In this document: in pieces, positions 1 to 63,800 of the stretch
Position numbering within the stretch: the first letter of the stretch is position 1
How the letters are laid out: every line of letters starts with the position of its first letter
Made by a program: the position numbers and the translations under genes
Notes under the pieces: generated by a model
The model's input: only the letters and a program-made list of their open reading frames with translations
The model's database searches: none
What the model was told of the DNA's origin: nothing
DNA from: Geosiphon pyriformis uo1
Taxonomy: Eukaryota; Fungi; Glomeromycota
NCBI GenBank assembly: GCA_016748015.1
Contig: JAAOMT010000134.1
Location: 1,618,757 to 1,682,756 of the forward strand
DNA: 64,000 nt
Reading direction: 5' to 3'

Positions 1-861
1 TAGAAAAATTTTGGATCTTTTAAAAATAATTAAAATTTTTAAAAATATTGAAAAGTAATAATAATTTTGTTGTTATGTTTTTAATATATATTGGTTAATT
101 TTATTGTTAATTTTTTCTTTTTTGGTAGCTAATTTTTTAATCTTAATAATTGTATACATATTTATTATATTTATTATAATAGTTTATTTACCAATAATTA
201 AAATAATATTTAAATAGTTTATTGTTTAATATTTATAAAGAGTATTAAAAATATTTTAAATGTATTGATTTATAAAATAATTATTTATGTTGATTAATAA
301 TATGTTTGTTTTGAAAATAATATATTTATTTATATCTAATTTTTATTGATTATTAAAACTAGTATTACTATTATAAACAATTAAGTCATTTGTAATACTT
401 CTTAAGTTTGGTGTTATGTACAGGGCAATTATTAAAGATTTACTTAAATTCAAAAAAATTATAATATAATTTAAAATAAATTTGTATTAATTTAAATGAA
501 TAATTAATATATAATATTAAACAAAAAAAGCAATTGCCAAAAATCAAGAATTATTGATAAAGTAATTTAGATTTTTAGACTCATATAAAAAATATGAAAC
601 TTTAAAAATTTAAAAATCGTGTAAAATATTAAATATCTCAAAATTTTTAATTTGATTTATTAAATTTATGAAGCTAAATCTGCTGAACTATAAAGAGAGC
701 ATCAAATTAAAAACCAAAGAAGATCACCGCAAATCCTTCATTTGAACGACGTCACATTGCTTGTTATCCTCCGATCACATCATAAAGCCAAAACCCCCGA
801 GTCTCTTTTCGTTTCTCAAAAAACCAGTGATTCGCATTCTTTTTATTAACATTTGCTTACA

Positions 862-3259: not shown

Positions 3260-4663
3260 AGAAGATGGGTTATGGCTCACCTTGGCGATTTCACATAAAA
3301 TTTATCTTCAAAATCACTTCCTCCAAAAAATCTTTGATGCGCGGAACAATTTACATATTTGTTTCTTTCGAATTGCCTTTTCCTTTTGTTCCTAACCAAA
3401 ATTTTATATGCCACAAGTTTTTACTTCAAATTTCCTGTTATTATGACTCCTCGCCTTAAATTTGTGATATATATATAATCTTTCTTTCTTTTCATACGCA
3501 TCACACTCTCGACAAATACTCTTATACATCCAACTTTATAAACTATCTTTATGATAGAATTGAAAATGGGTTTTTACTTCCATTGCAGGACACATTGTAT
3601 TTTTTTTCGGTGGTTTCCTATGGTGTTTCTTGTTTTTTTTCTTTTTCATGAACATACGCTCATAGCAATATATTTAATATCATAAGATCTTTTCTCCCTT
3701 GGGAGGATATAATGATGTCTCAGATTAGGTTGAGATATTTGTGGGTTGACATCGATATTTCAATAATTCCTTGGATTTTTACCCTTTCCCGACCTGTTTT
3801 TACTCCATGATCTGTTTGCCTATCGATCGACTTAATTCCTACACGTGCTTTTTATTCTCTGTAAGGATTATTACGATCACACGTTAGCTTTCTAAAATCC
3901 TTTACACTTTTTGTCTAGCATCAAGCATATATTGTTCGATCTTTGTGTAAATAATCGAGTTTTTTTAATTTGGGAATTGGATTATCATTAAAATTTCCAA
4001 AGAAAATCCATTGTGCCACATACAACCTACAATCAACCTTTATATCCTGTTAGAATATATGTAAAAAAAACATGGCTTCAAAATTAGATAACAGTAAAGA
4101 GGTCCAATAAACCAACAACAAAAAGATTTATACTAGAACGTTTCATCCCTCTCTTGCTCACTTGTTCACCCCCCTTCCTCTCACACTTCCGGTTTTTCTT
4201 TTGGATCTGATTATCAACCACATTAATATTTTGTTAGTTGACTTTTTTTTTATACAAAGGATGACTATAAACATGAATTTTATGCAGGGAACATGAAAAA
4301 GAATAGGGAAAGCGGGGACGGAATATTATTAATAGTATATGATCCCCAAACAATTCGAGATATTACTGGTCTGGGGATGCATAGAGCTATTACTTCCTCC
4401 CTCCCCTTCAATCATGTCCCAATAAAAATATATATATAAAATAAATCTATACAAAATTAGGCCGGGTTTCCGCATTACTCGAAAATCGGACGACAAAAAT
4501 AAGTGTTAGAATACAAGGAATAACCACGACTAATAAATAAATGAATATAATAATACAAGTAATTTTTAAGAAATATTCACAAGTGTGATGAGCATGGAGC
4601 CAATTTCTTCTCACCAAATCCTTCACAATCGAAGAGTCCAATTTTGAAAATTATATGCTCTCC

Positions 4664-16318: not shown

Positions 16319-18551
16319 TGTTATACTGCTATTACAGATGATTATTTGGGGTTTGAAAACAAATAACAAACCCATAACTTGGTACTCAATAGCCAATAAT
16401 ATAGATGTAAATAATATTTGAAGGTTTTTAGAATCTAAAGGTTTTGGTTGAGTTCTTTGTATAATAGACAAAGATTCGATAGATGTATTTTTTGATAATG
16501 TTCTTAGTGTTTTATCAATCCTTGAGTTAATGTGCTTGTTTTGTCCATTATTTTCCAAAATATTTATATTCTATCAATTTCTTTCTCAGCTTGATGGCTT
16601 GTAATCTTCTGGTAAGCTATTTTCAATTTTAAGTGTTTACCCTTATTTCTGGGTTTTTTACCAGTACTATATCCTAATATTAGTACTCTGCATGTTAATA
16701 TTTTAATCAATTAATAAATCCACAATAAAACAAAAAAAAAGAAAAAGAAATAAAAAAAATAATAAAAATAATGAAAAAAAAAATAAAGAGATAAGCCAAG
16801 ACAAAAAAAAGTTAGTATTCTGTTAATAGCCATAATCAAGAGTTATTGGTTTAGTATAGTTAAGTATTGGTAACTATTAACATGAATTGTTAATAGTAAA
16901 AAGATGAATTGTGATATGTAATAAGTATTTTATTAATATTTTATGTTTCCACTTCAAGTTATAGAATACTATTGTATAAAAGGATGAATAGAGAATTGGA
17001 ACTGAAGATTCTAACTAAAGATTCTGTCTTTTTTGCTTTTAATACTACTTCTATATATACATAAATTTTGTTAAACAAGATTCCTTGAATTTCTTAATTC
17101 TCTAGCCAGAAATTCTGTAATTTTTTGAGAGGAATCCTAGAATTCTGGAATTCTGTAATTCCTTATACTGGGATCCTGTAATTCTGGAATCCTGCAATTT
17201 TTCTGAGAAAAATTCTGGAATTCCACTTTTACTATGTCTTATTTTGATTGGCTAATTTGTGTACTAATATATAATTCTTATATTCTATGAGTAACACTAT
17301 GTAAGGAATTGCAAAATTTTAGAATTTCAGAATTTCAGAAATTCCAGAATTCCTGGCTAGAAAATTGAGAAATTCAAAAAACCTCAAACAATAAAATTTA
17401 TGTATATATAGCAGTAGTATTAGAAGCAAAAAAAACAGAATTCTTAGTTTAGAATCTTTAATTCCAATTCTATATCTATTTTTTTATATGATAGTATTTT
17501 ATGACTTAAAGTAAAAACATTAAATATCAATAAAATACTTATTTATTATCACAATTCATCTTTCTATTATTAACAATTTATGTTGATAATTGCCAATACT
17601 TTATTATACTGAACCAATAACTTTTAATTACAGTTATTAATAAGATACTAATTTTTTCTTGCCTTGACTTATTTCTTTATTTTTATTTATTTTATTTATT
17701 GTTTTTATTGTTTATTGTGTACTAATTAATTTGAAAGATTAAGCATTAATTAATTAATGTCATAAATAGTCTGATAAAAAACTCCAAAAAAAGAGTATCA
17801 AGTTTAAAAAATTTATGGATAAGCTTATCAAAAAGCACAATTGCCAGAATAAACTGACCATCATGCTAAAGACAAAAATTGGATGGAATTGTAATTCTAA
17901 AAGACTACTAAAACAACACTTGAATCTCTGTTTATTATACAAAAAACTTAACAAAAACTTTTAGACACTAAAATCTTCAGATATTACTAACCAGATCAGC
18001 TATTAAGCACTAAGTTATGAGTTTGTTATTTGTATTAACATCTTAAATAATTACTTGTAACATTTAGTGCTCTCTGTAAAGTATAATCTTATAGAGAACC
18101 AGTATTAACAACAACTATTCAAAAGTGACAGAATCAGAAAGAAAAAAAACAAAATATCTAAGATTTACTAAATCCTTATTTCAACACTACTGTTAACACT
18201 TGGAATTAATCAACAACCAACTATTAATGAAATTAGTCTTTAATTTTTATGTCAATAAAAGAATTAAATATTTCTTAGGAGAATCAATAAATATTGAATC
18301 AGCAAGAGGAAATTTTTATAATAAATTAATTCAATATACCAGCTTACTATTAAACTATAACTTTAATCCAATCATTATTAAAATCAACAGAGAAATTGAA
18401 AATCACACTCAACAAACATTTTCTATTATCTATGCAGAAAAAAGCAAAGAAAAACTACAAACACCAGTAGAAACTCTAAAACAAATATAATTACCTACTT
18501 GGAAAAAACAAAGAATTGATTTACCAGTTAATCTATTATATTATCACATGC
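16319..18551 (+). mobile_element. Family A element A0, 5' fragment: LTR (16319-16329 + 17297-18062), PBS, start of ORF1
   Basis: LTR ends TTGTAACA at 18062, then TT-TAGTGCTCTCTGTAA (decayed PBS), AAAA-GTG at 18125 and homology to ORF 24870 (FNFYVNKRI..KLQTP). The 5' LTR boundary at 16319 is less certain. Confidence 0.75.
16330..17296 (-). mobile_element. Family A solo LTR
   Basis: Ends TATTACAG... and ...TGAGTAACA; GGAATTCC-type repeats; flanks CTGC/CTAT (decayed 4-bp TSD). Confidence 0.85.
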
Positions 18552-23944: not shown

Positions 23945-24810
23945 TGTTACTCATAGAAATATAGGGAATATATATTAGCATAGTTATTAACCAATCAAAA
24001 GTAGACGTAGTAAAATGTAGAATTCCAGGATTTCTCTCAGGAATTGCAGGATTCCAGAAATTACAGGATTTTTACAAGGAATCGCAGGATTCCAGAATTC
24101 CAGGATTCCTCTCAAAGGAATTGCAGGATTCCAGGAATTCCAGGATTCCTGTTGTGAAGAATTGAGGAATTGAGGAATCTCAATTATGTATATATAGCAG
24201 TAGGATTAGAAGCTAAAAAAACAGATCTTTTAGTTTAGATTTCATCTAAACAACTTTCCAAAACACAAATAAATAACTGTTTGTTATCTCAAACTCACTA
24301 CCACTATCAACACTTCATGTTGATAGTAATTGATACTTAACCCCACTAGAATAATAGCTCTTGATTATGGCTATTGATGGAATACTAACTTGTAAATCAC
24401 CTTGGCTTATTTTTTTTCTTTTTTTATTTTCTTTTCTTTTTTTTATTTTTTTGCTTTGATTTTATTGTTGTTTACTAACTCTATTGAGGATTAATGTGCA
24501 GAGTATTGATGTCAGGATAAACGTGACTGGTAAAAGACCCAGAAATAAGGGTAGAACACTGAATTGAGGATAGCTTACCAGGAAGAATACCTCAAGCTGA
24601 AAAAAAAATTGATGAAACTGCAGTTTTGGGAAGCTACAGATAAAACTATTACCATTGAATCTTTGTCCATTATACAAAAAACTTAACCAAACTCTTCAGA
24701 TACAAACCTTCAGACACAAACCTTCAGATCACTATTAACTGCAACTAGATTTGAGCACCAAGTTACGAGTTTGTTATTTAATCTAACATCAGAAATAGTC
24801 ACCTGTAATA
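23945..24810 (+). repeat. A2 5' LTR
   Basis: TGTTACTCATAG...CCTGTAATA; GGAATTCC/GGATTCC array, TATATATA near 24189, T-rich tract. Confidence 0.92.
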
Positions 24811-24812
24811 TT

Positions 24813-24829
24813 TGGTGCTCCCTGTAAGG
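24813..24829 (+). promoter_or_regulatory. Primer binding site (family A)
   Basis: TGGTGCTCCCTGTAAGG, 2 nt after the LTR. Homologs at 18065 and 38342. Confidence 0.85.
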
Positions 24830-26521
24830 TATAATCTTATAGAGAACCAGCACCAACACAAATCTAAAAGTGGCAGAATCAGAAAACATAAGAGCAAACC
24901 ATCTAGAATTGGCAAAATCCTTATTTCAACACTACTGTCAACATTTGGGATTAAATTACAACCACATATCAGCAGAATCAGCTTTCAATTTTTACGTCAA
25001 TGAAAGAATTGCCTATCTGTTAGGAACACCAGTAAATATTGAATCAGCAAGAGAAGCCTTTTATAGTGAATTAATTCAAAATACCAACCTGCCAACAAAT
25101 CACAATTTTGCTTCTATTATTACAGAAATCAACAAAAAAATTGAACACCACACACAACAAAGATACCCCATTACTTATGCAAACAAAGGCAAAGGAAAAT
25201 TGCAAACACCAGCAGTAACACCCAAAAGAATACAACCATCTATTTGGAAGAAAACAAAAGTTGAGTTCCCAACTAATCCATTATACCACTATACATCTGG
25301 AAGTGTCATTAATATTACATTTACCAGTACAGTCACATCAAACATGACATTAGTATTTGGACAATTCCCATTCCAAAGTAAACAAAGGAAAGCAGAGTTA
25401 TTAGAACCATATGGCGCGTATTTTAAAAGATTTAACTCGCAATCATCAATGCCATCAGGACTTCGATCACTACCACCACCACCAGTTTTCAGTACTGCTA
25501 CTCTGTGAGAATTATCCAAAGAAGAGGAACAAGAAGAAGAGGAAGAAGAATCTGAGGATCAAGAGTTCACTTACCAAAACCCAATTTCTAAAAACCTGGA
25601 ATTTGAAATCCCAAACAATCAAACTCCAAGAAATCCAAATCAAGAAAACCCCGAAATTGAAACTCTAAATATTAGAACACCACCAACTCAGGATAATTGA
25701 AACCCTGATTTAATAAATCAACAAAACTTATCTTCAATAATCATCATCAATCAACCACCAATTAATCCAATAGCCAAACTCATATAGCAGCTACTTCAAC
25801 TACTACCCCAACAACCCATGCAACAACAACCGCTTCAACAGCCACCACAACAACCCAACTTAGATCCAATGGCCTATGCACCAATTGCAAAACTTGACAA
25901 TTTTACCAGTGAAGAAGATGACACTCAGATATGGCTGAATGATGTGGAAAAAACCATTGCAGCCAACGGATAGAATGATGTTCAAATAATGCAAGCCATT
26001 TCTTACTTTCTCAAGGATACCACCAATTCATGGTATTAGAGCTTGATTAATAAATCACAAGACTTCAATGCCTTTAAAGTGGAATTTTTAAGATACTTTA
26101 GCAACAATAACAGTATCAATCGCCTAATCAATACTTTCACCACCATAAAACAAGGAAAAACTGAAGCAGTCACCACTTACCTGGGATGCTTCCACAGAAA
26201 TCTATGCCAAATTCAAGCAATTAATGCCAACATTTCACAGTGCCACAGATCCTCAACCAGTTTATTTGTGGCCTGTGCAGCAGCATCTTACAATATGTAT
26301 GTCCATTACATTTTGGCACCCTTCAAAATGCAGTCACACACACCAGAGATTTTGAATCAGCTAAGTCTAAGACCAACCATGCCCAAGCCATCAATCTAGT
26401 GATAAACAAGTCATCTGAATTGAATTCCAAATTGGAGAAATTCAGGGAAACAATTAATCAGAAATTAGAGAGATACTTAGCTAACAACAATTAGACAATT
26501 TATCAACCACCACAATAATGT

Positions 26522-27554
26522 TGTTACCAGTAGAATTTTAGCTATTAATTAGTAGGAAAATTACCCTTATAATTCCTATAATTAATTAGTATATTAATAT
26601 TATTTCAAATTATCATTTATTATTTAATCAATTATCACATATCACAATTCAATTAAATAATCCAATTAGTATAATAAAAAGTAGGATGATCAAATTACAC
26701 AATACCCTGAACTTTGTAACATTCTAAAATTCACCGAAATTTACAGAAATTTGCCAAAATTTATAAGAAATTCACCAAAATTTATAGAAATTCACCAAAA
26801 TTATGAATAGTTCACCCAAATTAATTAATAGTTCAGCAAAATAACTTGTAGTTTATCAAAATGTATCTTTAGTTTACTGAAATTTGAGCAAAGAGAAAAA
26901 GTGCAAGTTCATAGACTAGTACTACAACAAGTTGTATAAAAAAAGAGCTTTTTTCTTCAAGAAAATATATTTTCTCATAGTACCTTACCATAGTATCTTA
27001 CTTTAAATATCTTAATTGAAACAAATTACCTTTTACAAAATCAAATAAAAATTAAATATTTGAAACCCAAATTCTTAAATTATTACACTTGAAATTCTCT
27101 CAACACATCTAACGTTTTGAAATTGATTAGCTACCAATTTCAATAAACTGTTAGTGACTTCAGGCCTAAATAGAAAACGTTTTCCTTGATAAAATCCTAT
27201 TTTTTTTACATTTTTTTTTTTTTTATTTTTTTTTCTTATTACAATCATTAGGGTAGCCTACAGACAAGATTCTTGTAGAAGAGTTAACTTTCACAGCAAA
27301 ATAACTACACATTTTTAGTAAGCTTCTAGATGAGCAATTCCTGGGAAAGAGTTGATGTTTACTACAACATAACTACATAAAATAACTGGCAAGAAATTGG
27401 CCATTCCACTTATAAGCCCAGCAGTTTAAATTATAGGAGATAATTTGAAGATAAATTCAGTTATTGGAGGTTCAATTACTTCTAAAAAACGTGAATTTGC
27501 AACCAACAGACAGTTACAACATTCAAGAAAAGAGACCAAAAACCTCCAATAACA
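26522..27554 (+). repeat. B1 5' LTR
   Basis: TGTTACCAG...CAATAACA; colinear with 35500-36524. Confidence 0.93.
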
Positions 27555-27556
27555 TT

Positions 27557-27572
27557 TGGTGCTCTCCCATGG
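27557..27572 (+). promoter_or_regulatory. Primer binding site (family B)
   Basis: TGGTGCTCTCCCATGG. Homologs at 57014 (minus) and 61903. Confidence 0.85.
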
Positions 27573-27599
27573 AAATAACACAGCAACAACAAATTCAAA

Positions 27600-30500
27600 G
27601 TGGCAACCACACCAGACACAGCAACTCTAGAGTATTACCAGTCAATTTACACCCACTGCAAGCAAAAATTCAACATTCCAGACGGAATTGAAGTTGTCAA
27701 GAAATCAGTATACCAATATATTGAAAACTACATCAACAATTATCTTTTTGGAAACTACAACATTTCAGAAGTTAGAAGCAATCTTTACAATAATTTAGTG
27801 CACTATTCACGATTAGGAACAGAAGACCTGAACAGTGAAACACTTGCTACTTACTTCCAAAAACTTAATTTTAACATTATTGAGTATTGTGAAAAAAAAT
27901 ACCCAGTACAGTCTCAATACTCTATTAACTTTGAATCAGAGACAGAAACAAGCAACAAAGGCAAACAAAGATTGAAGCAATACTTAAGAACCACTCCAAA
28001 CACTCCAATACTACAAAAGACAACTGCCAAACACTTGCAAACACCTAAACAAAGAACCAGTGTCAAATTACCAGTTTCTATTACATCATTTCCAATTTCA
28101 CTTGTTTAACCACAAATACCAAATTCACCACTCAACCACTTCTCCAAACTAGAAGATTTTCAGTTACCTAGAAACCTTATTCAACAGCAGGAACCAATAT
28201 CAACAAGTGCCAATATTATTGATTACTTACAGGAAAACGAAAGTAATCATTCAGAAAGCTTGGAAAGTGAAGAAACTGAATCAGAACCAGAAAAAATTAC
28301 AGAAAATGAAGAAGAAATGGCAACTGCTTACATTGCAAAAATCCCAGAATTTACTGGTGAAGACAATGATACCAGTCCTCAAGAATGGCTTGACAAAGTT
28401 CAAAAAGCAGGAGATGCAAATGGTTGGATCACAGCAAGAATGCTCAAAACAATTCCCTACTTTCTCCAAGAAACAGCAGAAGAATGGTTTGAAAATTTAA
28501 AAGAACCATTTGAAAACTGGCAAGCATTCAAAGATGCTTTTCTACAACAATTCACCAATAACAATACCTCTATTACTCTCAGAAACCACTTTTGCAATAT
28601 CAAATAAGAAACATCTGAAACTATTATGACCTATCTTGGAAGATTTAACAAACTTCTCAAATAAATCTGACAATTGGAAACCAATGACTACTATTCTAAT
28701 GCTCAAATTCTGGATCAGTTTATAGCAAGATTAAAAAACAAACTGATTAAGAAAGTTTATCTACATGCTCCAGCAGACTTAGCAACTGCTATTAGACATG
28801 CAAAGAGCTATGAAATGGCAATGGAAAAAGCAAATCACACCAAGCTTGTAAACCTTGCAATTGAAGAAACCAGTTCAGCAGCTAAAGAAAAGATAGACCA
28901 ACTTACAAAAAAGCTTGAAAGCTACTTCACAAACCAACAACAATAGCAACAACAACCACAAAGATATCAACCCTTACAATGACACAACCAAAACAATTTT
29001 GGATCACTATCCAACAACCAACCTCAAAATTGTCATTATTGTGGAATTCCAGGACACTGGAAATGAGATTGTAGGAAATTACAAAGAGACCAACAAAACA
29101 GAAGTAATCAATGTTACTCTTTACTACAACAATCTTATTACCAATCTCCACTACCAACCTATTATTTACCAAGACCACAAAATCAAAACAGTTACTATTC
29201 ACCAGCTCCACAACCAATGCAGCAACAATATCAGCAATCTTTACCAATTCAGTCATATTAGACACTACCCACTCAACAATATCAAGTACCAGCAAGAAGA
29301 TTGGTTCAACATAACCAATTCATATCCCAAAATCAATTGCAGAGTAACAACAACAGAATCAATCCAAATAACCAGTTGGTTCCCCGAAATTCTGGTCAGC
29401 AAAGACCCAATTACTATCACACTCAACCCAGTTATCTTACAATACCAGAGGAATCGGATTTTTAACAAACTGCACTTTCTGAAGATGAAGTTGCAGTACC
29501 AAGATCAAATCCTTCCAATCATACCATTCCACCAGCTCAAATTGCCCAAAATGCCAATCTGTCAGATATATTTCCATTTGAATTTGAAGCAAATAATTCA
29601 CCATTTCTGCTTAGTAATGCCGCAGTCAATAAACAGAAAGCAATTACTGCTATGTACACAGAAGCTATAGTAGAAGGAAAACTCATTCACTTAATCTTAG
29701 ATAGTGGATTGGCTCAAAGTATCATCACTTACCAGTTAATGCAACAACTCAAATAAAATGTAGACAAACCAGTTCAAACAGTTATTGTCACAGTTGATGA
29801 TATAAAAAAGACTCCAGTAAGAGAAATTAATGATTTCCCCTTTACAATTAATGGAATCACCATTCTAGTTAAAGTTCTTATTATAGATGCACACCAATAC
29901 CAAGCTCTAGTCAGAAATAATTGACTTCTCAAGGCCAATGCAAACCTGAACTGGGAAACTCAAGAACTTAAAATCTTATATCAAGAACAATATACCATAG
30001 TACCTGCAATCTGTGGTACCTTTAACAAATGATCAGAAAAAGCTCCAGTATTTGAATTTGAAGAAAAGAAGGAAATGCCACTCACTGAAACCTATATGGC
30101 TCTTGGATTACCATCCAATTGGGCTGAGGAAACAGAACAAGAGATTTTTGAAGAATTAAGAGAATGGAAGAAAGTTAGATATTCTACACCAGAACCATGA
30201 AAAAAACCACCATACATTCTACTAAAATGCAAAGATTGCAAAAAGAAGCTTTTATCTATGGGAGCCTGTATTTCTCCAAAAGAGGAATACAAAACTCGCA
30301 CTTGTTACTTCTACAAGGCATGCCATAGAAAACGATTTGGATTTCCAAAGAGAAGTAGAAAATGGGACAAAACTTCTTGCCTTACTTGTAGAAAAATGCT
30401 ACCAGAAGAATGCAACTGGATTGATGTAGCAATGAGAGGAGGAGTATGTAATCAGATCTGTCAATATGCTTTATCAATTTCGGAAAAAGTCAGAAAAGGA

Positions 30501-33224
30501 ACACCATTTGATGCAGCATACAACAGTGCTCTCAATAAACTTTATCACTACTCTCATGATGCTGAAATGATTTTTGACCTAGCAATGGCATTGATCAATG
30601 GAGCCACCCAAAAAGATGTCCACCAAATGAAAGAAGCTGAATATATTAAGTATACCATAGAATTAGCTGAATTTGATTATGAAAATGAAGTAGAAACCTA
30701 CCACCAAATTGCAAGCCATACATATCCAACCAAAGAAGCTCAAATTCAATGATTAGAGCAAATGAATATTCAATTGTGTGAAGAATGTATTATGCCTTGT
30801 GATGACCAATGGTGTTTAGAATGTTATGCTCTTAGCATTCCTCTGCCAGATGAGAATAATGAAAATGAAATCGAATTTGGAGTATCTGAACTAGTAGAAA
30901 AACTACCAACCACCTCCATCTATCTTCTTGAAAAGCAACCATCTCTACAACTTAAATATTTTGACAACTATGGCCAAGGAATTAGACCAAAAAAAGCACA
31001 CAAAATTGATGCTGGATATGATCTAAGATACCCAGGAAAAGATACTTTGGTTCTTCAACCAAAGTCCTTAACAAAAATCAATCTCAAAATTGCTCTTGAA
31101 ATTCCACCAGGAGCAATGGTTCAAATTGCCTCCAGATCATCATTGGCAAGCAAAGAAATCAATATTAGAGGAGGAGTTATAGATGCAGAATACACTGGAG
31201 ACATTACCATTATGTTACAGAATGAGACAGACAAACCATTCAAAATTGAACATGCTGAAAAAATTGCTCAAGCAATTTACTTACCCTTAATCAACATTTC
31301 GGGTTTACAATCAGTAAACAACAAAGAACAATTGGGAAAAAGTAAAAAAGGAACTCAAGGTTTTGGTTCAACTGGATGATTTACAGTTTCAGTAAACATA
31401 GCTCTTAATACACAAAATGAATCTTACCAGATTCTTCAACTTCTTCAGCCAATTACCATTTTACCTTTTGGAAAACATCACGAAATTTACACTTGCTCAA
31501 AACCCACCACTACACAACAAATCTTTGAATCCAATAAACAAATCTGTTTAAAGCATGAAATCTCAATTCTAAACATTTATATTCCCAAAGGAATGAAAAA
31601 ATTTCGAGTTACATTCTACAATCCCAATAATTACCCTATTGTCTTATTAAACAAACTAGAGATTAGAATCATACACAGCAATATTTTTTAAGATGAAAAC
31701 CCTCAAATTGTCTCTAATTTCATCGAAATTGTAAGGCACACTCTACTTCCAAATCCAAATATCATTCCCATTACTGAAAACTACCACTTTTTGGAAGAAA
31801 AACTCTTTCAAATCAACATGGATTTCTTAGAACCTCAACAATAAAGACAATTGAAACAATTGATAACTGAATTTGCAGATATATTTGCAAAAGACAACAA
31901 TGACCTGGAAAAAACAGATATTGTTCAACATCAGATCCATATAGGAGATGCTCTACCAAAATGTCAACAAGCTTATCGAATGCCACTTGCCAGCCACCAA
32001 TTCATCAGAGAAGAAGTCCAAAGAATGCTCAATAATGGATTGATTCAACCATCAAGAAGTTCTTGGGCCTCACCAGTGGTTTTAGTTAAAAAAAAAAATG
32101 AAAAAATTAGATTCTGTGTTGATTATAAACAACTAAATAGTGTTACAATTGGAGATGCCTACCCTCTTCCAAAAATTGATGACATGCTAAATGCTCTAGG
32201 AAAAGCCAAGTTCTTCTCAACTTAAGACTTGGAAAGTGGATACTGGCAAGTCAAAATGGATCCAAAAGATAGACCCAAAACAGCATTCATCACTTAAGGA
32301 GGAAACTATGAATTCAATGTTATGCCTTTTGAACTCTGCAATGTATCAACAACATTTCAGTAACTCATGGATGTTGTATATAAAGGGCTCTTATGGCAAT
32401 CAGTAGTTGTCTATTTTGATGATACTGATGTATACTCACCAAGCTTTGAAGCCCATCTCATTCACCTGCAAGAAGTTTTTCAATGATTATGGAAAGCAAG
32501 ATTAAAGTTAAACATTGAGAAATGTTACTTTGGAAAAACAAGCTTGATCTTTTTTGGACACATATTTAGTAAAAATGGAGTCAAACCAAATCCAGGAACA
32601 ATCAGTGATGTCAAAAACTTTCAAACCTCCAGAAATACCACAGAACTAAGAGGATTTGTAGAACTAGCCTCTTACTATCAGAAATTCATAAAAGGATTCT
32701 CAGAAATTGCCAAACCACTCAATTATCTTACCAACAAAAACGTGCCATACAAATGGACTAAAGAACAGCAAAAAGCTTTTAAAACTCTTAAAACAAAATT
32801 GACAACAGCCCCAGTTCTTGCTTACTCAGACTTCAACAAACAGTTCCAATTAGCCATTGATGCTTTACACATAGTATTTGGTGCTATTTTATCACAAGTA
32901 GATGAAAATGGGCAAGAACAAGTCATTGCTTATGCTAGTAGAACACTCAAACCAACAAAACTAAAATATGGCTCAACTGAATTAGAAGCTGCCACAGTTA
33001 TTTGGGCTCTTAAACATTTTCAACAATATCTGAAAAATAGAAAAGAATTTGACATAATAATGGACAACATTGGCCTCAAATGGCTCAATAAAAAGAAAAC
33101 TGAACAAAGTGCCAAACAGTCTCAATGGAATGACTTCCTAGCAGATTACAGATATATTGTACACCACAAACCAGGAAAACTACATACCAATGTTGATAGC
33201 CTTTCAAGAATGAGACAAAATTAA
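27600..33224 (+). pseudogene. B1 ORF1: N-domain-Gag-PR-Cys-rich-dUTPase-RT-RNase H in one frame (1874 codons, point stops)
   Basis: Fragments at 27600, 28260, 28674, 30258, 30762, 31851 and 32544 share one frame. CHYCGIPGHWK.DC, LILDSG, DAGYDLRY/IASRSS/GFGSTG, YFDD, NVDSLSR. Confidence 0.92.
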
Positions 33225-33281
33225 TACCAACAACAATTCTATCACAACTTACCAACTTACCAACAAAATGACCAAACAAGA

Positions 33282-34667
33282 ATGGATCTCAGAAATTACA
33301 ACAATCTTAAAAATTATTTGGAAACTCTTACCATGCCAGAAAACTGGTCTCCAAGTGAAAAACATTGTTTACAACACCAATTAAAACAATATTTCATACA
33401 CCAGAACAAAATTGATTATAAAAATCACAGAAACCCAAACCAACCACTCAGATTAGTACAAGAAAATGAAAAAGAAACAATTTTATACAACATGCACACA
33501 GATCCGTTTTCAGCACACTTGGGAAGAGATGGAACAATTCAAAGAACCCTTGAACATTATTTTTGGTCTCACATGCAAAAAAACATTCAACAATATATAG
33601 AATCTTGTGATAGTTGTTAAAGCAGAGAAAGAATTTGCTCCACAGAACCTTTAAATCCAATCAAAGTTGGACAACTTTTTAACAGAGTTGGAATTGATTT
33701 AGTCGGACCATTACCTATTACAACCCAAGAAAATTGCTATATTGCAGTAGCAGTAGATTATCTTACCAAATGGCCTGAAGCTAAAGCCATCCAAAGAGCA
33801 GATACAAAATTAGTAGCAAATTTCATCTATGAAGACATTATTTGTAGACATGGATGTCCAATTGAACTTTTATCTAATCAAGGAACACATTTTGTGAACA
33901 ACTTGATACAAGAAATTTGTGAATGGTTCAATGTTAAAAAACCTCTATTATTACCTTATCACCCTTAAACAAATAAACTTATAGAACGTTTCAACAGAAC
34001 ATTGTGTGAATCTTTAGCCAAAGTCTCAACAGACTTTGAGCAGGAATAGGATATCTTTATTCCATCAGTGTTACTAGCATACAGAATGCTAAAACAAGAT
34101 ACTACAAAACACACACCATTTGATCTTACTTATGGGAGGACAGCAACATTACCAATTAATTTCACAGTGGAAACATATCCAGTGCAACCAATCAATGAAG
34201 AAAACTTTCAAGAAACACTCCAAAGAAGGGCCTACACTCTTCTTAGTACACTGGAAGGAAAAAGAAGAATAGCAGCAACTTATATTGAACATTCCCAAGC
34301 TCAACAAAAAAAAAGACATGACAACAAATTACCACTTATTACCAACAAATTTAAAGTTGGAAATAAAGTTTTTTTATACAGAACTAAGACTGAAAAACAA
34401 TGGAGTGAGAAATTTGAAAACAAATAGGATGGACCATTTTATATTCACGAAATTCTAGGCAATAGATCATACAAGTTAAGACTTGATGACAAAATACTAA
34501 CAAAAGTTGTACATGGAGACAGATTGAAACACTATCATTCCAGAAACAATCCTGAACCATTAATTCCACAAATTAGTACACATTCTCTTTTAATTAATCC
34601 TGAAGATATTTCCCAAAATTTAGAACCAATAATTATAATAGAACAACAACCAAACTTGAACACTTAA
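33282..34667 (+). pseudogene. B1 integrase ORF
   Basis: ATG 33282; MH..AHLG..CDSC, VGIDLVGP, ERFNRTL, DGPF; TAA 34665-67. No chromodomain evident. Confidence 0.9.
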
Positions 34668-34811
34668 ATTTTACAATAATTCTCTAATAAAAACACAAAG
34701 ACAAAAATAGTAAATAAATTACAAAAACACCCAAACCCAAAAACAAATAAAAACTCCATATCCAAAAATAATTTTCTTTATTTTCTCTTTTCACAATTAG
34801 TCAATTTTATC

Positions 34812-35519
34812 ATAATTATTTCCCGAAATATTTAACAAATATCCCAAAAGTTAATATTAGCCTTGAAAACACTTCCTGACTTATCCATAACAATTAATGG
34901 AAGTCAAATTAATTACATTCAGAAAAAAACCACAGTCCCAGTAGCAAATCATTCACAGAACTATCACCTCTATAGAAGAAAAACAAGAAGTCACTCTGAA
35001 AATAAGTTACCAAGACTTTTGAAGCAAGCACTGGAAGAAAATCTTTTAATTGTCCCTATTGACATTTCACCAAATGCTACAATGCAACAAAAACTTCTAC
35101 TACTTTTTAATGAACAGAACAATGAACACACTCCTATCTATAAATACTTTCACATTGGAAAGACACTTTATGAACAAAAACTGGAACTTGAAGCAACAAA
35201 TCTCACTCTTGAAGCTATACAAAAGCAAATTCATAATGAATTCAAAACAGCAGCTGGATCAACAAATACTTGCTACAAACTTAAAGCAGCTTTTAGACTC
35301 TATAATTTGTTTAATACTTGTGAAAATGTTCTACAAAATCCAATACTGCAACCAATGAAAGTCCAATACATTGGCAAACTTACAGAACTGAAATTTCAAC
35401 AATTTTCAGACCAAATTACTTCAATTATTTTGGATCACTATCTCAATATTACAAATAGTGTTTGGATTTTGATGGAGCTCAGTCTTGAGAAGAAGATTAT
35501 GTTACCAGTAAAATTTTAG
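34812..35519 (+). pseudogene. B1 ORF3 (unknown ~235 aa protein)
   Basis: 218-aa open portion in the track. Start inferred from the B2 homolog (ATG at 49812; ATA here). Reads through the PPT into the 3' LTR. Confidence 0.78.
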
Positions 35520-36524
35520 CTATTAATTAGCAGAAAAATTACCCTTATAATTCTTATAATTAATTAGTATATTAATATCATTTCAAATTATCATTTATTA
35601 TTTAATCAATTATCACATATCACAATTCAATTAAATAATCCAATTAGTATAATAAAAAGTAGAATAATCAAATTACACAATACTCTGAACTTTGTAACAT
35701 TCTAAAATTTGCCGAAATTTACAGAAATTCGCCAAAATTTTAAGAAATTCACCAAAATTTATAGAAATTTGCCAAAATTATGAATAATTCACCCAAATTA
35801 ATCAATAGTTCAGTGAAATAACTTGTAGTTCATCAAAATGTATCTTTAGTTCACCGAAATTTGAGCAAAGAGAAAAAGTGCAAGTTCATAGACTAGTACT
35901 ACAACAAGTTGTATAAAAGAAAAGCTTTTCTCTTTAAGAAAATGTATCTTTTTATAGTACCTTATCATAGTATCTTACTTTAGATATCTTAATTAAAACA
36001 AATTATCTTTTACAAAATTAAATAAAAATTAAATATTTGAAAACCAAATTCTTAAATTATTATACTTGAAATTCCCTCAACACAACCAATGTCTTGAAAT
36101 TGATTAGCTACCAATTTTAATAAACTGTTAGTAACTCCAGGCCTGGATAGAAAACGTTTTCCTTGATAAAATTCTATTTTTTTTACATTTTTTTTTTTTT
36201 TTTTCTTATTACAATCATTAGGGTAGCCTACAGACAAGATTCCTGTAGAAGAGTTGACTTTCACAGCAAAATAACTACACATTTTTAGTAAGCTTTCAGA
36301 CAAACAATTCTTGGAAAAGAATTAACATTTATTACAATGTAACTACATAAAGTAACTGGCAAAGAATTGGTCATTCCACTTATAAGCCCAGCAGTTCAAA
36401 TTATAGGAGATAATTTGAAGATAAATTCAGTTATTGGAGGTTCAACTACTTTTAGAAAACGTGAATTTGCAACCAACAGACAGTTACAACATTCAAAAAA
36501 AGAGACCAAAAACCTCCGGTAACA
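35500..36524 (+). repeat. B1 3' LTR
   Basis: TGTTACCAG...CCGGTAACA. Confidence 0.93.
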
Positions 36525-38401: not shown

Positions 38402-41400
38402 GTGGCAGAATCAGAAAATATAGGAGCAAACCATTTAGGATTTGCAAAATTTTTATTTCAACACTATTGTCAATACTTGAGATTAAATCACAATCATATA
38501 TCTGCTGAATCAGTCTTTAATTTTTATGTCAACAAAAAGATTTTCTCTTTATTAGGAACACCAGTGAATACTGAATCAGCAAGAGAAACTTTCTATAGGG
38601 AGTTAATTCAAAACACCAACCTGCCAACAAATCATAATTTCACATCCATCATTATTAAGATCAACAAAGAAATTGAACACCACACTCAATAAAAATATCC
38701 AATTACACTAATAAAGGCAAGAGAAAACTACAAACACCAGCAGTAATACCCAGAAAAATACAACCACCTACTTGGAAGAAAAACAGAATTGAATTCCCAA
38801 GCAACTCATCCTACCACTATACACCTGGAAGTGCCATCAACATATCATCAACAGACATGTTCCCATTAACTGTGACATCAGCATTTGAACAATTTTCATT
38901 CCAAAGTAAACAAAGGAAAACAGAATTATTAGGACCATATGGCGAATACTTTGAGGGATTTAATTCACAATCATCAACCCCATTAGGACTTTGATCACCA
39001 CTGCCTCCACCAGATTTTGGAATCTCTGATCTGTGGGAAGCAGCAGAATCAGAAAAAGAGGAAGAAGAATCAGAGGATCAAGAATTTGCTTACTAGCACC
39101 CAATCACTAAAAACCCGGAAGTTGAAACCATGAATTTTCAAACTCAGCAAAATCTAAATCTAGAAAATTTGGAAATCAAAACTCCAAATCATCAAAGGCA
39201 GAACAATCCAAACCCCGAATTAATTAATCAGCAAAACTTACCTCTGGTAATCATCATCAATCAACTGCCAATTAATCCCATAGCTGAACTTATATAACAG
39301 TCACTTCAACTACCACCCCAACAACCAGTACAACAACAACTGCTTCAATAGCCACCACAATCACCTAACTTAGATCCAATGGCCTACGCACCAATCGCAA
39401 AACTTGACAACTTTACTGGTGAAGAGAATGATGCTCAAGTATGGCTGAATAATATAGAAAAGGCCATCACAGCCAACGGATGGAATGACGCCCAAACAAT
39501 GCAAGCTATTCCCTATTTTCTCAAGAATACCGCCAATTCATGGTATCAGAGCTTGGTTAATAAACCACAAGATTTCAATGCCTTCAAAGCAGAATTTCTA
39601 AGATACTTCAACAACAATAACAGCATCAATCACCTAGTCAATACATTCACCACTATGAAACAAGGAGAAACTAAAGTAGTCACCACTTACCTGGGACGCT
39701 TCTATTAAAACCTGCACCAAATTCAAGTAATTGATGCCAACTATTTCACAGCCCCACAGATACTCAACCAGTTTATCTGTGGTCTGTGCAGCAGCATCTT
39801 GCAACATGTATGTCTGTTGCATCCAGGCACTTTTCAGGATGCAGTCACATGTGCCAGAAATTTTGAATCTGCTGAGTCAGAGGCTAATCATGCCCAAGCC
39901 ATTAATCTAGTAATGAATGGATCATCTGAATTGGATTCCAAATTTGAGAAGTTCAGTGAATCAATTAATAAGAGATTGGAAAGATACTTAGCTGACAATC
40001 ATGCCATTTATCAGCCTCCACAATGACACAATAATCAAGGAAACTCTAATCATGCCCAAAATCAACCACGTCTATCTTCATTGACCAATCAACAGTGGCA
40101 ACAGGAAACGCGTATCTGCCACTATTGTGGTAAACAAGAACATATCCAAATTGACTGTCACCAGCATTTAAATAACCAACAATTGGGAAATCAATATCGA
40201 AACCCTGATCGCCAGTTCTCAACTCTGAATTATCAATCAAACTCAACACAATATCAAACTACTTACCTGCCAATGATGCAGCAATCAATTTATCAGCCAC
40301 CAGTATATTAAGCTCCAATTTATTAACCAACAGCCCCAATTTATCAGCCACAGCCACAGGTAATGTATCAACTGCAACCACTAACAATCTATCAACCCCA
40401 AACAATTCAGATCCCGTCACAAAACTTACTGATCAGCAGAGTCCAAAGGCCGAGAATTATACAGCAAAACTGGAAATTGTCAATGGTAGTTTATCAGCTG
40501 ATCCCCAGCTTCTTTAGTTAAACAGGATCTCATCAATAGAATTCGGGTGCTAGGAATTCCCAAAACCCAAATTCCCAGAACTATTTAAGTTTTCTGGTTA
40601 CCTCAGAAGACACTTCACCCAGCAATCAGAAACCCACCCAAAAACAAACACATACCAGCAATATTCTGCCAGCAACAGTTACCAACAACAAATCACTGAA
40701 TGCTATCTTTCCATTTGAACTTAAGGAACCATCAACCACGCCATTATTTAGTGGAGCCGCACTAGAAGAAAAGCCAAATACCATTATGTACACTGATGCA
40801 AAAATTGATGGCCATCACATCAAACTAATTCTTGACAGTGGTTCAGCAGGCAGCATCATCACACGACAATTCATGGATCAATTAGGTTGCCGAGTTAATC
40901 GAGCTGCTAGCGCCAGAATCATCATGGCTGATGGAGCGACCAAGACTCCAATTGGTGAAATCGATGACTTACCAATCGAAATTAATAGCATCATAGTACC
41001 AATCAAAGTACTTGTTATGGAAGCCACCCAATACCAAGCTCTAGTTGGTAATGACTGGCTGTCCAAAACGAATGCCACTCTGAACTGGAATACACAAGAG
41101 CTCCAACTCAGCCAGAACAGGCAACACACGTGAGTACCAGCCATGTGTGGCCACTTCAAGACTACCAACACCATGGCACTACTAATCGACTTCGAGGAAG
41201 AAAAACAAAAACCTACCTGGGAAGCCTACCAAGTATTATGGGCTGATGAAGAGCACAATGAGCTGCTGCCAATACTCTCTTGGAATGACAACAGGAAAGA
41301 AAAGCAAACAAATGAACTTACCTGGGAAACTGACAATCTGACTTAGATTGACAACAAATAGGAAGAATCATTGAGTTGAGAGTGGAAAAAAAAAAAGGGA

Positions 41401-54300: not shown

Positions 54301-56970
54301 TGTATTCTTTCTCAGATAAAATACAAGCTCCCATTGATGAGAGTTTCTTGTGGCAATCTTTGCATTTGAGTGGAATGTAAGAGTGTTGTTTTCATGGTTC
54401 TGGTTTTGAATAGAGAACATTCCATCTGGGTGTCACTGGTTTTTTTGTTTCAAGAGAATTGTTTGTTGAAAAATACTGTTGTTCAGTTTCATCAGCCCAA
54501 TTGGAGGTTGATCTAAGTGCCATAAATGTTTCAATGATGGGTTTTTCTTCTTTCAGTTCAAATTCAAAAGCCAGAGCTTTTTTGGAGCATTTGTTGAATG
54601 TATCACAAGTGGCAAGTATCTGGGCATGTTGTCTTTGGTAGGAGATTGTTAACTCTTGTGTCTTCCAATTCAGATTAGCATTGGCTTTTTGGAGCCAATC
54701 ATTTCCAACAAAAGCTTGGTATTGGAGAGCATCCATAACCAAAACTTTGACTGAATGGTGATTTCGTCAATTGTAAATGAGAAATTGTTAATTTCTTCTA
54801 CTGAAGTCTTTTTCATGCCATCGGCAGTAACGATTACTGTCTGAGCTGGTTGGTCAACATTTCTTTTTAACTGTTGTATCAACTAGTAGGTGATGATGCT
54901 TCCAGCAGATCTACTGTCTAGGATCAAACAAATTCCCTTTCCTTCAACTTCTGTTTCAGTGTACATAGTAGTGATTGCTTTTTGTTTGTTGGTGGCTGCA
55001 TTGCTAAGCAGAAATGGTGACTTATTTGCTTCAAACTCAAAAAGGAATATATCTAAGAGGTTGGCGTTTTTAGCAATTCTGGCTGGTGGGATTGTGATAG
55101 GAGTATAGAAAAAGTTTTGTTGTTGTGCTGCAGCTCTACCTTCTGAGAGTGCAGTATGGTAAAAATCCTGTTCTTCTGGCATCATAAGATAATTAGGTTG
55201 AGTATGATAGTGGTTGGGTCTATGTTGATTCGAATTTTGAGTGGTTAATTACTTGTTGGAATTTAATCTGTTGTTGTTTGTTGGAAAACGGTTTTGTGGT
55301 GTAAATTGATTATGTTAAACCAATCTTCTAGCTGGCACTTGATATTGTGGTGTGGATGGTTGTTGATACTGTTATTGAATTGGTTGTGGAGCAGGTTGAT
55401 AATAGTGGTTTGGATATTGTGGTCTTGGTAAATATTGAGCTAGTGGTAATAGATAATATGATTGTTGTGGTTGAAAATAACGTTAATTATTCCTCTGTTG
55501 TTGGTCTCATTACAATTTTCTACAATCACATTTCCAGTGTCCTGGAATTCCACAATAATGACAATTTTGGATTTGGTTGTTGGATGGTGGTCCAAAGTTG
55601 TTTTGATTGTGTTGTTGTGGGAGTTAGTATCTTTGTGGTTATTGTGATTGCTGCGGTGGCTGTTTTTACTGTTGGTTGGTGAAGTAGTTTTCAACTTTTT
55701 TGGTTAATTGGTCAATCTTTTTTTCAGCTGCTGAGCTGGTTTCTCCAATAACCAGGTTAACAAGTTTGGTATGGTTGGCTTCTTTTATGGCCATTTCATA
55801 GTTTTTCATCTGTTGAATAGCAGTGGCTAAATCTTCTGGTACATGTGGGCAAACTTTCTTGATAAGTTTGTCTTTTAGTCCAGCAATGAATTGATCCAAG
55901 ATTTGTGCATTGGAGTAGTATTCATTGGTTTCCAATTGGTGAATTCTTCTAAGCAGTTTGTTGAATTTCTTAAGATAGGTCATAACTGATTCACTTGGTT
56001 CTTGCTTGATATTTCAGAACTGATTTCGAAGGGTGATAGAAGTGTTATTGTCAGTGAACTGTTCTAGAAAAGCAGTTTTGAATGCTTCCCAGTGTTCTGG
56101 TGGAGCTTCCAAGTTTTTAAACCATTCATTGGCTGTTTCTTGTAAGAAGTATGGAATTGCTTTTAACATTCTGGCAGTGTTCCAACCATTTGCATCTCCT
56201 GCTTTTGAGACTTTGTCAAGCCATTCTTGAGGACTGGATTTGCTATCTTCTCCTGTGAACTCAGGGATTTTTGCGATATATGTGGAGATCATTTCTTCTT
56301 CATTTTCTGAGTCTTCTGTTTTTTGTTCTGATTTGGTCTCTTCACTTCAATTTTCTGCTAAGTAGCCAATAAGGTTTGTGCTGGTTAATATTGGTTTCTG
56401 TTGTTGAATAGGGCTTTTGGGTAACTGAAAATCTTTTATTCTTGAAAACCGAATAAGTGGTGAGCTTGGTGTTTGCAGTTGAGCAAGTGAAGCTGGAAAT
56501 GATATGATTGAGAGTGGTAATTTAAAGCTGGTTCCTTGTTCTGGAGTTTGTAAATGTTTGGCAGTGGTTTTAGGTGTATTGAGAGTAGTTCTAAGTTTTT
56601 GTTTTCTTTTTCCTTTTTCTTCTTCTGTTTCCAATTCAAAACCAAGAGAAAATTTCTGTTCTACTGGATAATTCTCTTCACAATACTGAATGATATTGAA
56701 GTTGAGTTCTTGGAAATATGTTTCAAGTGTTTAACTGTTAAAATCCTGAGTGTTTAGACGAGAGTGATGTACTAAGCTTTCATATAAGTTGTGTCTAACT
56801 TCTGAAATGTTGTAGTCTCCAAAAAAATAATTGTTGATGTGATTTTCAATATACTGGTAAAGTGTTTTCTTGAATGTTTCAATTCCGTTTGGGATGTTAA
56901 ATCTCTGCTTGCAGTGGGTGTAGATTGACTGATAATACTCTAGAGTTCTTAAATCTGTTTGAGCCACCAC
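51371..56970 (-). pseudogene. B2 ORF1 (Gag-PR-Cys-rich-dUTPase-RT-RNase H)
   Basis: GTG 56970, in-frame ATG 56292, YLDD, TAG at 51371-73; one 1-nt deletion near 54750. Confidence 0.9.
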
Positions 56971-60889: not shown

Positions 60890-63800
60890 TGTTACCAGTA
60901 GAATTTTAGCTATTAATTAGCATGAAATTATCCTTATAATTCCTATTAGTAATTAACATATTAATATCAATTCAAATTATCACTTATTATTTAATCAATT
61001 TATCACATATCATGATTCAATTAATAATCTAATTAGTACAACAGAAAGTAAGATAATCAAATTACACAATACCCTGAACTTTGTAACATTCTAAAATTCG
61101 CCAAAATTTACAGAAATTCGCCGAAATTTATATGAAATTCGCCGAAATTTATAGAAATTCGCCGAAATTATGAATAATTTATCCAAATTAATCAATAGTT
61201 CAGCAAAATAACTTGTAGTTCATCAAAATGTATTTTTAGTTTGCCGAAATTTAAGCAAAAAGAAAAAGTGCAAGTTCATAGACTAGTACTACAACAAGTT
61301 GTATAAAAGAAGAGCTTTTCTCTTCAAGAAAATGTAACTTACTTTAGATTTATTACTTAGAACCATTCTTACACACACAAAAAGAAATAAATATCAAATA
61401 ATTTAAAAAACCAAATTCTTTAATTATTGCACTTAGAAAATCCCCAAAACCCAACTAACGTTTTTGAAATTGATTAGCTACCAATTTCAGTAAACTGTTA
61501 GTAACTCCAGGCCTGGATAGAAAACGTTTTCCTTGATAAAATCCTATTTCTTTTACATTTTTTTATTTTTATTTTTTTTTCTTATTACAATCATTAAGGT
61601 AGCCTACAGACAAGATTCTTGTAGAAGAGTTGACTTTCACAGCAAAGTAACTACACATTTTTAGTGAGCTTCCAGATGAGTAATTCCTGGAAAAGAATTG
61701 ACATTTACTACAACATAACTACATAAAATAACTGGCAAGGAATTGGCCATTCCACTTATAAGCCTAGCAGTTCAAATTATAGGAGATAATTTGAAGATAA
61801 ATTCAGTTATTGGAGGTTCAACTACTTCTAGAAAACGTGAATTTGCAACCAACAGACAGTTACAACATTCAAGAAAAGAGACCAAAAACCTCTGGTAACA
61901 TTTGGTGCTCTCTCATGAAAATAACACAGCAAACAACAAACTTCAAAGTGGTAACCACACCAGACACAACAACTCTAAAGTATTATCAGTCAATTTACAT
62001 CCATTGCAAGCAGAGATTCAACATCCCAAATGGAATTGAAATTGTTGAAAGAACATTCTACCAATACATTGAAAACTGTATTAACAATTATCTTCTTGGA
62101 AATTACAATATTTCAGAAGTGAGAAGCAATCTCTACAATAATCTAGTACACTATTCACAATTGGGAACTGAAGACCTTAACAGTAAAACACTTGCCACCT
62201 ACTTTCAAGAACTCAATTACAACATTATTAAGTATTGTGAAGAAAAATACCCAGTACAGTCTAAATACTCTTTTGACTTTGAATCAAAAACAGAAACAGG
62301 CAACAAAGGCAAACAAAAAGTGAAACAACACTCAAAAACTGCTCCAAACACTCCAATACTATCAAAAACAACTGCCAAACACTTGCAAACATCTGAACAA
62401 GAAACCAGTGTGAAATTACCACTTTCTATCACACCATTTCCAATTTCACTTGCTTGACTACAAACACCAAATTCACTACTTAACTATTTCTCCAGACCAG
62501 AAGATTTTCAGTCACCTAGAAATTCTACTCAACAGCAGGAATCTATATCAACAAGCACCAATATTATTGAATACTTGCAGAAAAACGAAAATGATCATTC
62601 AGAAAATTTGGAAAGTGAAGAAACTGAATCAGAACAAAGAGAAGCCACAGAAAATGAAGAAGAAATAGCAACTGCTTACATTGCAAAGATTCCAGAATTC
62701 ATAAGTGAAGATAATGATACCAGTCCTCAAAAATGGCTTGACAAAGTTCAAAAAGCAGGAAATGCAAATGGTTGAATTGCAACAAGAATGCTTAAAGCAA
62801 TTCTCTACTTTTTTCAAGGAACAGCAGAAGAATGGTTTGAAAATTTAGAAGAACCATTTGAAAACTGGCAAGCATTCAAATATGCTTTTCTACAACAATT
62901 CACCAACAACAATACCTTTATCATTCTTAGAAACCACTTTCACAATATCAAACAAGAAACATCTGAAACTGTTATGACCTATCTTAGAAGATTTAATAAA
63001 CTTCTCAAATAAATCCAACAATTGGAAACCAATGATTACTATTCTGATGCTCAAATTCTGAATCAGTTTATAGCAAGGTTAAAAGACAAACTGATTAAGA
63101 AAGTCCATCTACATGCTCCAGCAGACTTAGCAACTGCTATTAGACATGCAAAGAGCTATGAAATGGCAATGGAAAAAGCAAATCACACCAAGCTTGTAAA
63201 CTTTGCAATTGAAGAAACCAGCTCAGCAGCTGAAGAAAAGATAGACCAACTCACAAAAAAGATTGAAAGCTACTTCACAAACCAACAACAACAGCAACAA
63301 CAACCACAAAGATATCAACCCCTATAATGACACAATCAAAACAATTTTGGATTACCATCCAACAACCAATCTCAAAATTGTCATTATTGTGGAATTCCAG
63401 AACACTGGAAATGAGATTGTAGAAAATTACAAAGAAACCAACAAAACAGAAGTAATCAATGTTACTCTTCACTACAACAATCTTATTACCAATCTCCACT
63501 ACCAACTTATTATTTACCAAGACCACAAAATCAAAACAGTTACTATTTACCAATTCTACAACCAATGCAGCAACAATATTAGCAACTTTTACCAATTCAG
63601 CCATATCAAACACCACCCACTCAACAATATCAAGTACCAGCAAGAAGATTGGTTCAACATAACCAATCCACACCCCAAAATCAATTGCAGAGTAACAACA
63701 ACAGAATCAATCCAAATAACCAGTTGGTTCTCCAAAATTCTGGTCAGCAAAGACCCAATTACTATCACACTCAACCCAGTTATCTTACAATACCAGAGGA

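Follow-up and report, generated by a model that had tools for sequence, protein, structure and literature searches.

Probable GUG initiation with leaky scanning to a capsid AUG in Ty3/gypsy retrotransposons of Geosiphon pyriformis

The window, that is the whole stretch of 64,000 nucleotides analyzed here, is a nest of decayed Ty3/gypsy LTR retrotransposons belonging to two families, A and B. Pfam identified capsid, protease, dUTPase, reverse transcriptase (RT), RNase H and integrase domains, and their order pooled over the copies (PF03732, PF19259, PF13975, PF00078, PF17917, PF17921) is the Gag-to-integrase layout of Ty3/gypsy elements. Element B1 of family B spans 26522-36524. Its 5' LTR (26522..27554, forward strand) and 3' LTR (35500..36524, forward strand) are 92% identical, have TG...CA ends and are flanked by a 4-nt repeat corresponding to the target duplication. 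The primer-binding site (PBS) lies 2 nt past the LTR end (27557..27572, forward strand) and is followed, on the same strand, by a Retrotrans_gag match (PF03732, 28452..28601) and by the dUTPase (30987..31376) and RT-RNase H (32754..33149) domains of pol, all located by Pfam. In both families, the dUTPase is placed between protease and RT (30987-31376, 42325-43179 and 53267-54190); it is missing in the intact relatives described below. A second protease, hinted at by a weak PF03539 match just before RT, was dropped, as a weak match occupies the equal place in a relative too. The insertions are nested (23945-47627), B1 lying within A2 and B3 within a minus-strand A element. Outside the elements, a host gene for a dynein light intermediate chain was found at about 860-3260. 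Inspection by eye recognized seven introns in it, each of 61-110 nt, whose removal leaves an open frame of 592 codons. A 660-codon open frame at 5165-7147 (minus strand) has no Pfam match.

Six 5' ends are present in the window, and all of them carry AAA-GTG, at 18125, 24870, 27600, 38402, 56970 (minus strand) and 61948; G is found at +4 in five, A1 having A. These are the positions at which the initial annotation had set the beginning of Gag homology, and its coordinates were confirmed. In B1, the GTG (27600..27602, forward strand, context aaaGTGGC) is the proposed start of a long Gag. From the TATA-like motif to the capsid ATG, it is the sole CTG, GTG, ACG or TTG with A at -3 and G at +4 that is common to B1, B2 and B3. 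On the forward strand, the GTG is followed in A1 by a truncated N-terminal domain (18125..18540), and it leads to the capsid ATG at 25869 in A2 (24870..25871), to the capsid ATG at 39379 in A3 (38402..39381), and to a capsid start decayed to ATA in B3 (61948..62667). In B2, on the minus strand, the segment runs from the GTG at 56970 to the capsid ATG at 56292 (56290..56970).

Upstream of this site, a TATA-like motif (26935..26941, forward strand) is present in all five B LTRs, and we infer a transcription start about 30 nt downstream of it. Past this motif, the family B LTR is poor in ATG (7 against 17.1 expected). Each of these ATGs has an ACG or ACA sister with one exception, which lies about 30 nt past the motif and is absent from both B2 LTRs. 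Between PBS and GTG (27575..27599 in B1, forward strand), the leader is A/C-rich, T-poor and unstructured, and its length shifts the frame among copies and subfamilies. The spacing from PBS to GTG is 43, 44 and 45 nt in B1, B2 and B3, so that the upstream frame is indeed unlike among the three copies, as had been noted initially, and 60, 57 and 60 nt in A1, A2 and A3. In family A, the leader frame classes are inherited (7 label changes versus 22.2 when shuffled, on 108 rows with 5 unclassified rows excluded), and one class is marked by Ser6 (9/9 versus 0/85 elsewhere). In family B, 13 label changes were counted versus 16.4 shuffled, on 95 rows (4 excluded) and a poorly resolved tree in which 2 of 92 branches are starred. 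Since the leader length shifts the frame between replicating subfamilies, an unspliced start in the LTR was rejected. An ATG does lie 31-33 nt upstream of the GTG in B1 and B3 (27569 in B1); as B2 has ACA at this site, it is regarded as a product of CpG decay.

The family A LTR contains a seven-codon upstream ORF in weak context (24317..24340, forward strand). Its ATG is kept in all five A LTRs, which makes it a true short upstream ORF, and a donor-like GTAATT comes next in three of the five; family B LTRs have no counterpart. About 470 nt away, the family A PBS (24813-24855) and a downstream complementary arm form a hairpin (-18.1 kcal/mol in A2). This hairpin is missing in family B, where folding near the PBS gave little structure (-7 kcal/mol). 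In addition, each of the five A LTRs has a T-rich tract with a branch-like TACTAAY motif on either side (24385-24486), possibly marking a leader intron or a 3' end signal. The U5 part of the B LTR (27400-27552) bears an ATG-less open frame of about 50-60 codons, which, once CpG decay has occurred, often serves gene models as their first exon (28 models) and is probably due to chance.

The database homologues of the segment between the GTG and the capsid ATG, called the extension below, are ab initio gene models of dead copies, for which the longer length class was searched. The 120 listed of 151 homologues for family A and the 120 listed of 419 for family B are all named as hypothetical proteins of Geosiphon pyriformis. 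A profile search of 1.84 billion representatives returned 191 matches; among the 150 listed, those inspected were A- or B-like; four that were looked up carried the name G. pyriformis, and one match proved to be an unrelated repeat. The protein atlas search gave no usable match. At the GTG site, the family B homologues have Val at 99, Met at 11 and other residues at 9 of 119 aligned positions. Those of family A have Val in 89 and Met in 1 among 98, and the wider family A set has Val in 113, Met in 8 and Leu in 5 among 126. Protein data do not tell GTG from other Val codons, and in all six window copies the codon is GTG. Five of the 11 Met residues of family B come after unrelated residues and look like model junctions. 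The Met share (11/119) is below the background of G>A change at non-CpG first positions (median 0.13), so these copies fit decay; for the family A codon junctions, the G>A rates pool CpG and non-CpG sites. Furthermore, A at -3 is retained when -2 varies (Lys or Thr preceding Val), and among the aligned homologues no column upstream of the capsid Met has a Met majority. A consensus ATG had been named as the outcome contrary to GUG initiation; with mostly Val in the database copies (99/119 and 89/98), the proposed reading stands.

In B1, no ATG occurs in any frame from 27600 to 28305, the first one being out of frame at 28306 and the first in-frame one at 28317 (+717 nt), exactly as the initial annotation had it. 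The comparison with shuffled sequences that it had suggested gave 16 ATGs in five segments (4088 nt) versus 50.5 ± 5.4 in dinucleotide shuffles, none of 500 being as low, a depletion beyond chance. ATG is the second most depleted of the 64 triplets, TAA being the first, and the stricter in-frame codon shuffle yielded p values of 0.03-0.06 per copy in four copies. The depletion ends at the capsid ATG, since the next 600 nt hold 77 ATGs for 66.9 expected. Between paired LTRs, 47 of 76 CpG positions are unlike, as opposed to 14-24% of other C sites, and decay thus creates ATG from ACG. Most of the surviving intervening ATGs have sisters of the ACG, ACA or GCG type, and the earlier view of them as CpG-decay products therefore holds. 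The out-of-frame ATG at 28306..28308 (forward strand) is common to B1, B2 and B3; the next residue is Lys in 27 and Glu in 21 of 50 homologues, a CpG signature for which this ATG is taken as a decay product of AAC-GAA. The ATG common to the three A copies is less clear (Gly 19, Ser 8 and Asp 3 of 30). As all window copies are decayed, the ATG-free state is one that we infer for their ancestors. Similarly, B1 carries an in-frame TAA (28107..28109, forward strand), a private decay of this copy, so that the mechanism concerns ancestral active elements and not B1 itself.

The extension comprises 226-333 codons following the GTG. In B1, it consists of a Met-free N-terminal domain (27600..27914, forward strand) under purifying selection, predicted to be a four-helix bundle, and of a low-complexity linker ending in an acidic run (27915..28316, forward strand). 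Over 220 codons of the B1/B2 pair, pN/pS was 0.32 for transversions and 0.46 for transitions, with 0.72-1.73 in the shifted frames; the A2/A3 pair gave 0.32 and 0.62, respectively. Close or heavily decayed pairs give less signal (transitions in the B1/B3 linker, 1.51; A2/A1, 1.31). The indels of the extension measure 3, 9, 9 and 24 nt between B1 and B2, in the linker, and 4, 9 and 9 nt between A2 and A3, in contrast to the 16 LTR indels, which are mostly of 1-2 nt. From these sequence comparisons it was concluded that the segment from the GTG to the capsid ATG is coding and under purifying selection, the outcome on which the earlier proposal depended.

Over the first 105 codons, families A and B share 18-22% identity. 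The best of five models of the N-terminal domain has four helices and a mean pLDDT of 81.6, the remaining ones reaching 56-66. Fold searches with this model retrieved nothing at E 0.001 and no specific structural match; the best structural match (Z 6.8, rmsd 3.6, 104 aligned) is of a generic kind. The comparison with retroviral matrix proteins concerns a predicted four-helix model whose best structural matches are generic. No hydrophobic segment was detected in the B1, B2 and A2 extensions, in which the maximal 19-residue hydropathy is 1.0-1.1.

The in-frame ATG of B1 (28317..28319, forward strand, context gaaATGG) opens the capsid region and is the proposed start of a short Gag. Equivalent in-frame ATGs, already pointed out for A2 (+999) and B2 (+678), were found again at these distances; that of A3 lies at +977, after deletions, and that of B3 has decayed to ATA. 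The family A capsid ATG has C at -3. Six of the seven long ORF pieces of B1 are in the GTG frame, and the intact relatives have one single ORF. Gag and Pol thus appear to share one frame, and a leak would set the ratio of extension to capsid, not that of Gag to Pol.

Intact polyproteins were found by an RT search. The first two Met residues are at positions 1 and 187 in P0385 and at 1 and 277 in P0494, the second one marking the opening of the capsid region in both. A scan of metagenomes gave at least six loci, representing five distinct elements, which correspond to about three independent lineages. Scanned with the window capsid alignment, viral and metagenome contigs gave no locus, nor did viral and genome contigs scanned with P0385, P0495 and their alignment. 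In a quick tree of RT-RNase H (66 rows, built without bootstrap), the four window elements are grouped with L001, L002, L006, P0385, P0389 and P0406 (SH-aLRT 96); L004 and L005 have no RT by which to be placed. L001 (940-6345), L002 (1685-6505) and P0385 encode capsid, zinc knuckle, protease, RT and RNase H in one ORF. They have no integrase or dUTPase by Pfam and end in a Cys/His-rich region. L002 and L003 bear terminal repeats, as in circular assemblies.

The ATG that opens the frame in each of the five relatives lies 53-111 nt past the PBS and is flanked by T at -3 and A at +4, a weak context by the definition of PMC5902531. The 438-828 nt that follow contain 0-1 ATG, compared with 4.4-9.8 out-of-frame ATGs expected from codon shuffles. 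Then, near the capsid, comes the next in-frame ATG, which four of the five relatives precede with A at -3. L001 has C there, and G is present at both -3 and +4 of a further ATG situated two codons later. The next in-frame ATG is also the first one met in any frame in four of the five relatives; in L004 and L005, it lies about 40 codons ahead of the capsid-aligned part. No homology was detectable between the extensions of the relatives and that of the window, and two further extension types were recognized; the first starts are therefore equivalent by position only. Judged from these sequences, the layout is conserved across the relatives and the cargo domain is not. That intact elements have a weak first ATG, followed by a run free of ATG and then by another ATG in frame, provides independent support for a model with two starts.

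The sequence hallmarks of a non-AUG upstream start are thus present in the window: a GTG in optimal context, coding constraint behind it and an AUG-free run to the capsid ATG. Near-cognate codons are weak starts, as stated in PMC5666671 and PMC5902531. In the mechanism that we propose, transcription would start in the LTR, about 30 nt past the TATA box, and a minority of scanning ribosomes would initiate at the GUG, giving a domain-linker-capsid polyprotein. The remaining ribosomes would traverse 680-1000 AUG-free nt and initiate at the capsid AUG, giving the short Gag. Both polyproteins would come from one RNA, with the leak setting the dose of the extension domain rather than that of Pol. 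The long form might then, as a guess, co-assemble as a minor particle subunit displaying the helical domain. The reading of the initial annotation, two Gag isoforms through GUG initiation and leaky scanning, is supported by the Val consensus, the purifying selection and the layout of the relatives; GUG use and the two products are deduced from these. We consider it probable that long and short Gag arise in this way, and a two-start expression of Gag, when a start made by splicing is counted in, appears somewhat more probable still. A weak first start with leaky scanning looks clade-wide, and in the lineage of the window a weak AUG and a strong-context GUG have likely been exchanged, in either direction. 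By a narrower preference, we favor the broader view that, through the conserved layout of this fungal Ty3/gypsy clade, a dosed minority of the capsid subunits receives an accessory domain that can be swapped, with at least three unrelated domains filling the slot and with weak-context AUG and strong-context GUG being interchangeable for the same tuned leak.

Splicing could supply a true AUG in two ways. An intron covering U5, PBS and leader might use the AG of AAAG-TG as its acceptor, and an exon with A as its last letter would then make A|TG; the long Gag would be translated from this AUG on spliced RNA and the short one from the capsid AUG on unspliced RNA, that is, two isoforms without GUG. 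This would account for the conserved AAGTG and tolerate any leader length. AAG acceptors occur in three of the seven host gene introns, family B has a branch-like ATAAC at a workable distance (26-28 nt) before AAAG as well as donor-like aaa|GTAACT sites in its LTR, and several ab initio gene models join at this AG. However, in five of the six copies, T occurs 2-3 times among the 25 nt preceding the AG, versus 7-17 times in the host introns, and family A has 3-4 other AGs past its only branch-like motif. A at -3 is, moreover, retained when -2 changes, and the relatives use an unspliced weak ATG at the equivalent position. Among the 15 listed of 42 contigs aligned with 26500-29500, no joint was seen at the leader, but these are presumably from DNA and carry no information on splicing. 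A start made by splicing, another outcome that the initial annotation had set against its reading, is possible mainly in family B, but on sequence grounds unlikely as the general explanation. We give distinctly less credit to the other route, in which a short LTR exon bearing the ATG at 24317 (Met-Leu-Ile, donor GTAATT) is joined to a TACAG acceptor in the leader and the GTG is an ordinary Val codon. The ATG is found in all five A LTRs and the donor-like motif in three, the leader is in the fitting frame in 85 of 113 Val-bearing A models, and P0031 uses this join. Against it, family B has no counterpart, neither leader acceptor is in frame in one replicating A subfamily of 9 copies, and the conserved part of the A leader pairs with the PBS in the hairpin. 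With about 520 nt, the intron would also be longer than those of the host gene (61-110 nt), and two TACTAAY motifs would be passed over.

A similarly small chance is left to the GUG being the sole start, the capsid being cut out by the protease or the short Gag being made from an internal transcript, with an incidental ATG gap. Ty1 p22 comes from an internally initiated RNA, according to PMC5408680, and the C at -3 of the family A capsid ATG would suit this explanation. Neither route, however, needs three ATG-free frames, and yet the depletion stops at the capsid ATG in the window and in all five relatives. The least probable of these explanations, in our estimation, is that ribosomes arrive by a shunt or by reinitiation behind a short upstream ORF, in the manner of rice tungro bacilliform virus (RTBV), or use several near-cognate starts, as in Neurospora cpc-1 (PMC5487733). 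Family A does have the seven-codon upstream ORF and the PBS hairpin, but family B lacks an upstream ORF of ancestral age, its structure around the PBS is slight (-7 kcal/mol), and homology and frame constraint begin at the GTG. Leaky scanning from the GUG to the capsid AUG is therefore preferred.

The layout of the window works like those of MLV glyco-Gag, RTBV ORF I and PEG10 and is identical to none of them. MLV glyco-Gag is a membrane-anchored, glycosylated extension. It begins at a CUG upstream of the gag AUG (PMC13517186), and in both cases a near-cognate in-frame start upstream yields an N-terminally extended Gag beside the AUG form. MLV differs in being a retrovirus that uses CUG, whereas the window elements are fungal Ty3/gypsy retrotransposons with a GUG and an extension of 226-333 residues free of a hydrophobic anchor. 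The analogy drawn in the initial annotation thus stands for translation and fails for the membrane anchor, the extension having no hydrophobic signal-anchor. In RTBV ORF I-III (PMC5902531), a weak non-AUG first start is used at about 10% and is followed by a 900-nt AUG-free run. The likeness lies in this weak first start and the long run to a capsid-polymerase start. However, RTBV has separate ORFs after a ribosome shunt, and the window has one continuous frame and, in family B, no shunt structure. PEG10, a retrotransposon-derived gene, has a CUG 102 nt upstream of its AUG (PMC2800197) and likewise makes a Gag-like protein from a near-cognate codon and an in-frame AUG. It is, in contrast, a domesticated mammalian gene with a 34-residue extension, whereas the window has mobile elements, a predicted folded domain and AUG depletion. 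Two fungal cases are also related. Ty1 p22/p18 (PMC5408680) represents a fungal LTR retrotransposon with long and short Gag products, but these involve an internal transcript and AUGs inside the capsid, whereas a single RNA with a short form beginning at the capsid N-terminus is deduced for the window. Neurospora cpc-1 (PMC5487733) indicates that near-cognate codons in a good context serve fungal ribosomes as starts of long N-terminal extensions; it differs as a host gene under uORF control with AUU, CUG and ACG codons. Among the papers listed from the full-text literature covered, which includes few subscription journals, no description of such a two-start layout in an LTR retrotransposon was found.

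Since annotation of LTR retrotransposons lets Gag begin at the first ATG, a non-AUG start hides a whole domain. In G. pyriformis, whose genome is 41% LTR sequence according to PMC11952901, the extension domain is missing or mis-spliced in hundreds of gene models. If the proposed mechanism is true, the strategy of glyco-Gag and pararetroviruses extends to mobile fungal retrotransposons, and the clade offers a natural experiment on the trade-off between AUG context and codon identity. Both the leak ratio and the role of the extension are open to direct tests in the intact relatives. Directly before the weak ATG, four of them (L002, 1625-1685; L004; L005; L006) also carry a short repeated hairpin motif, which may tune the first start.
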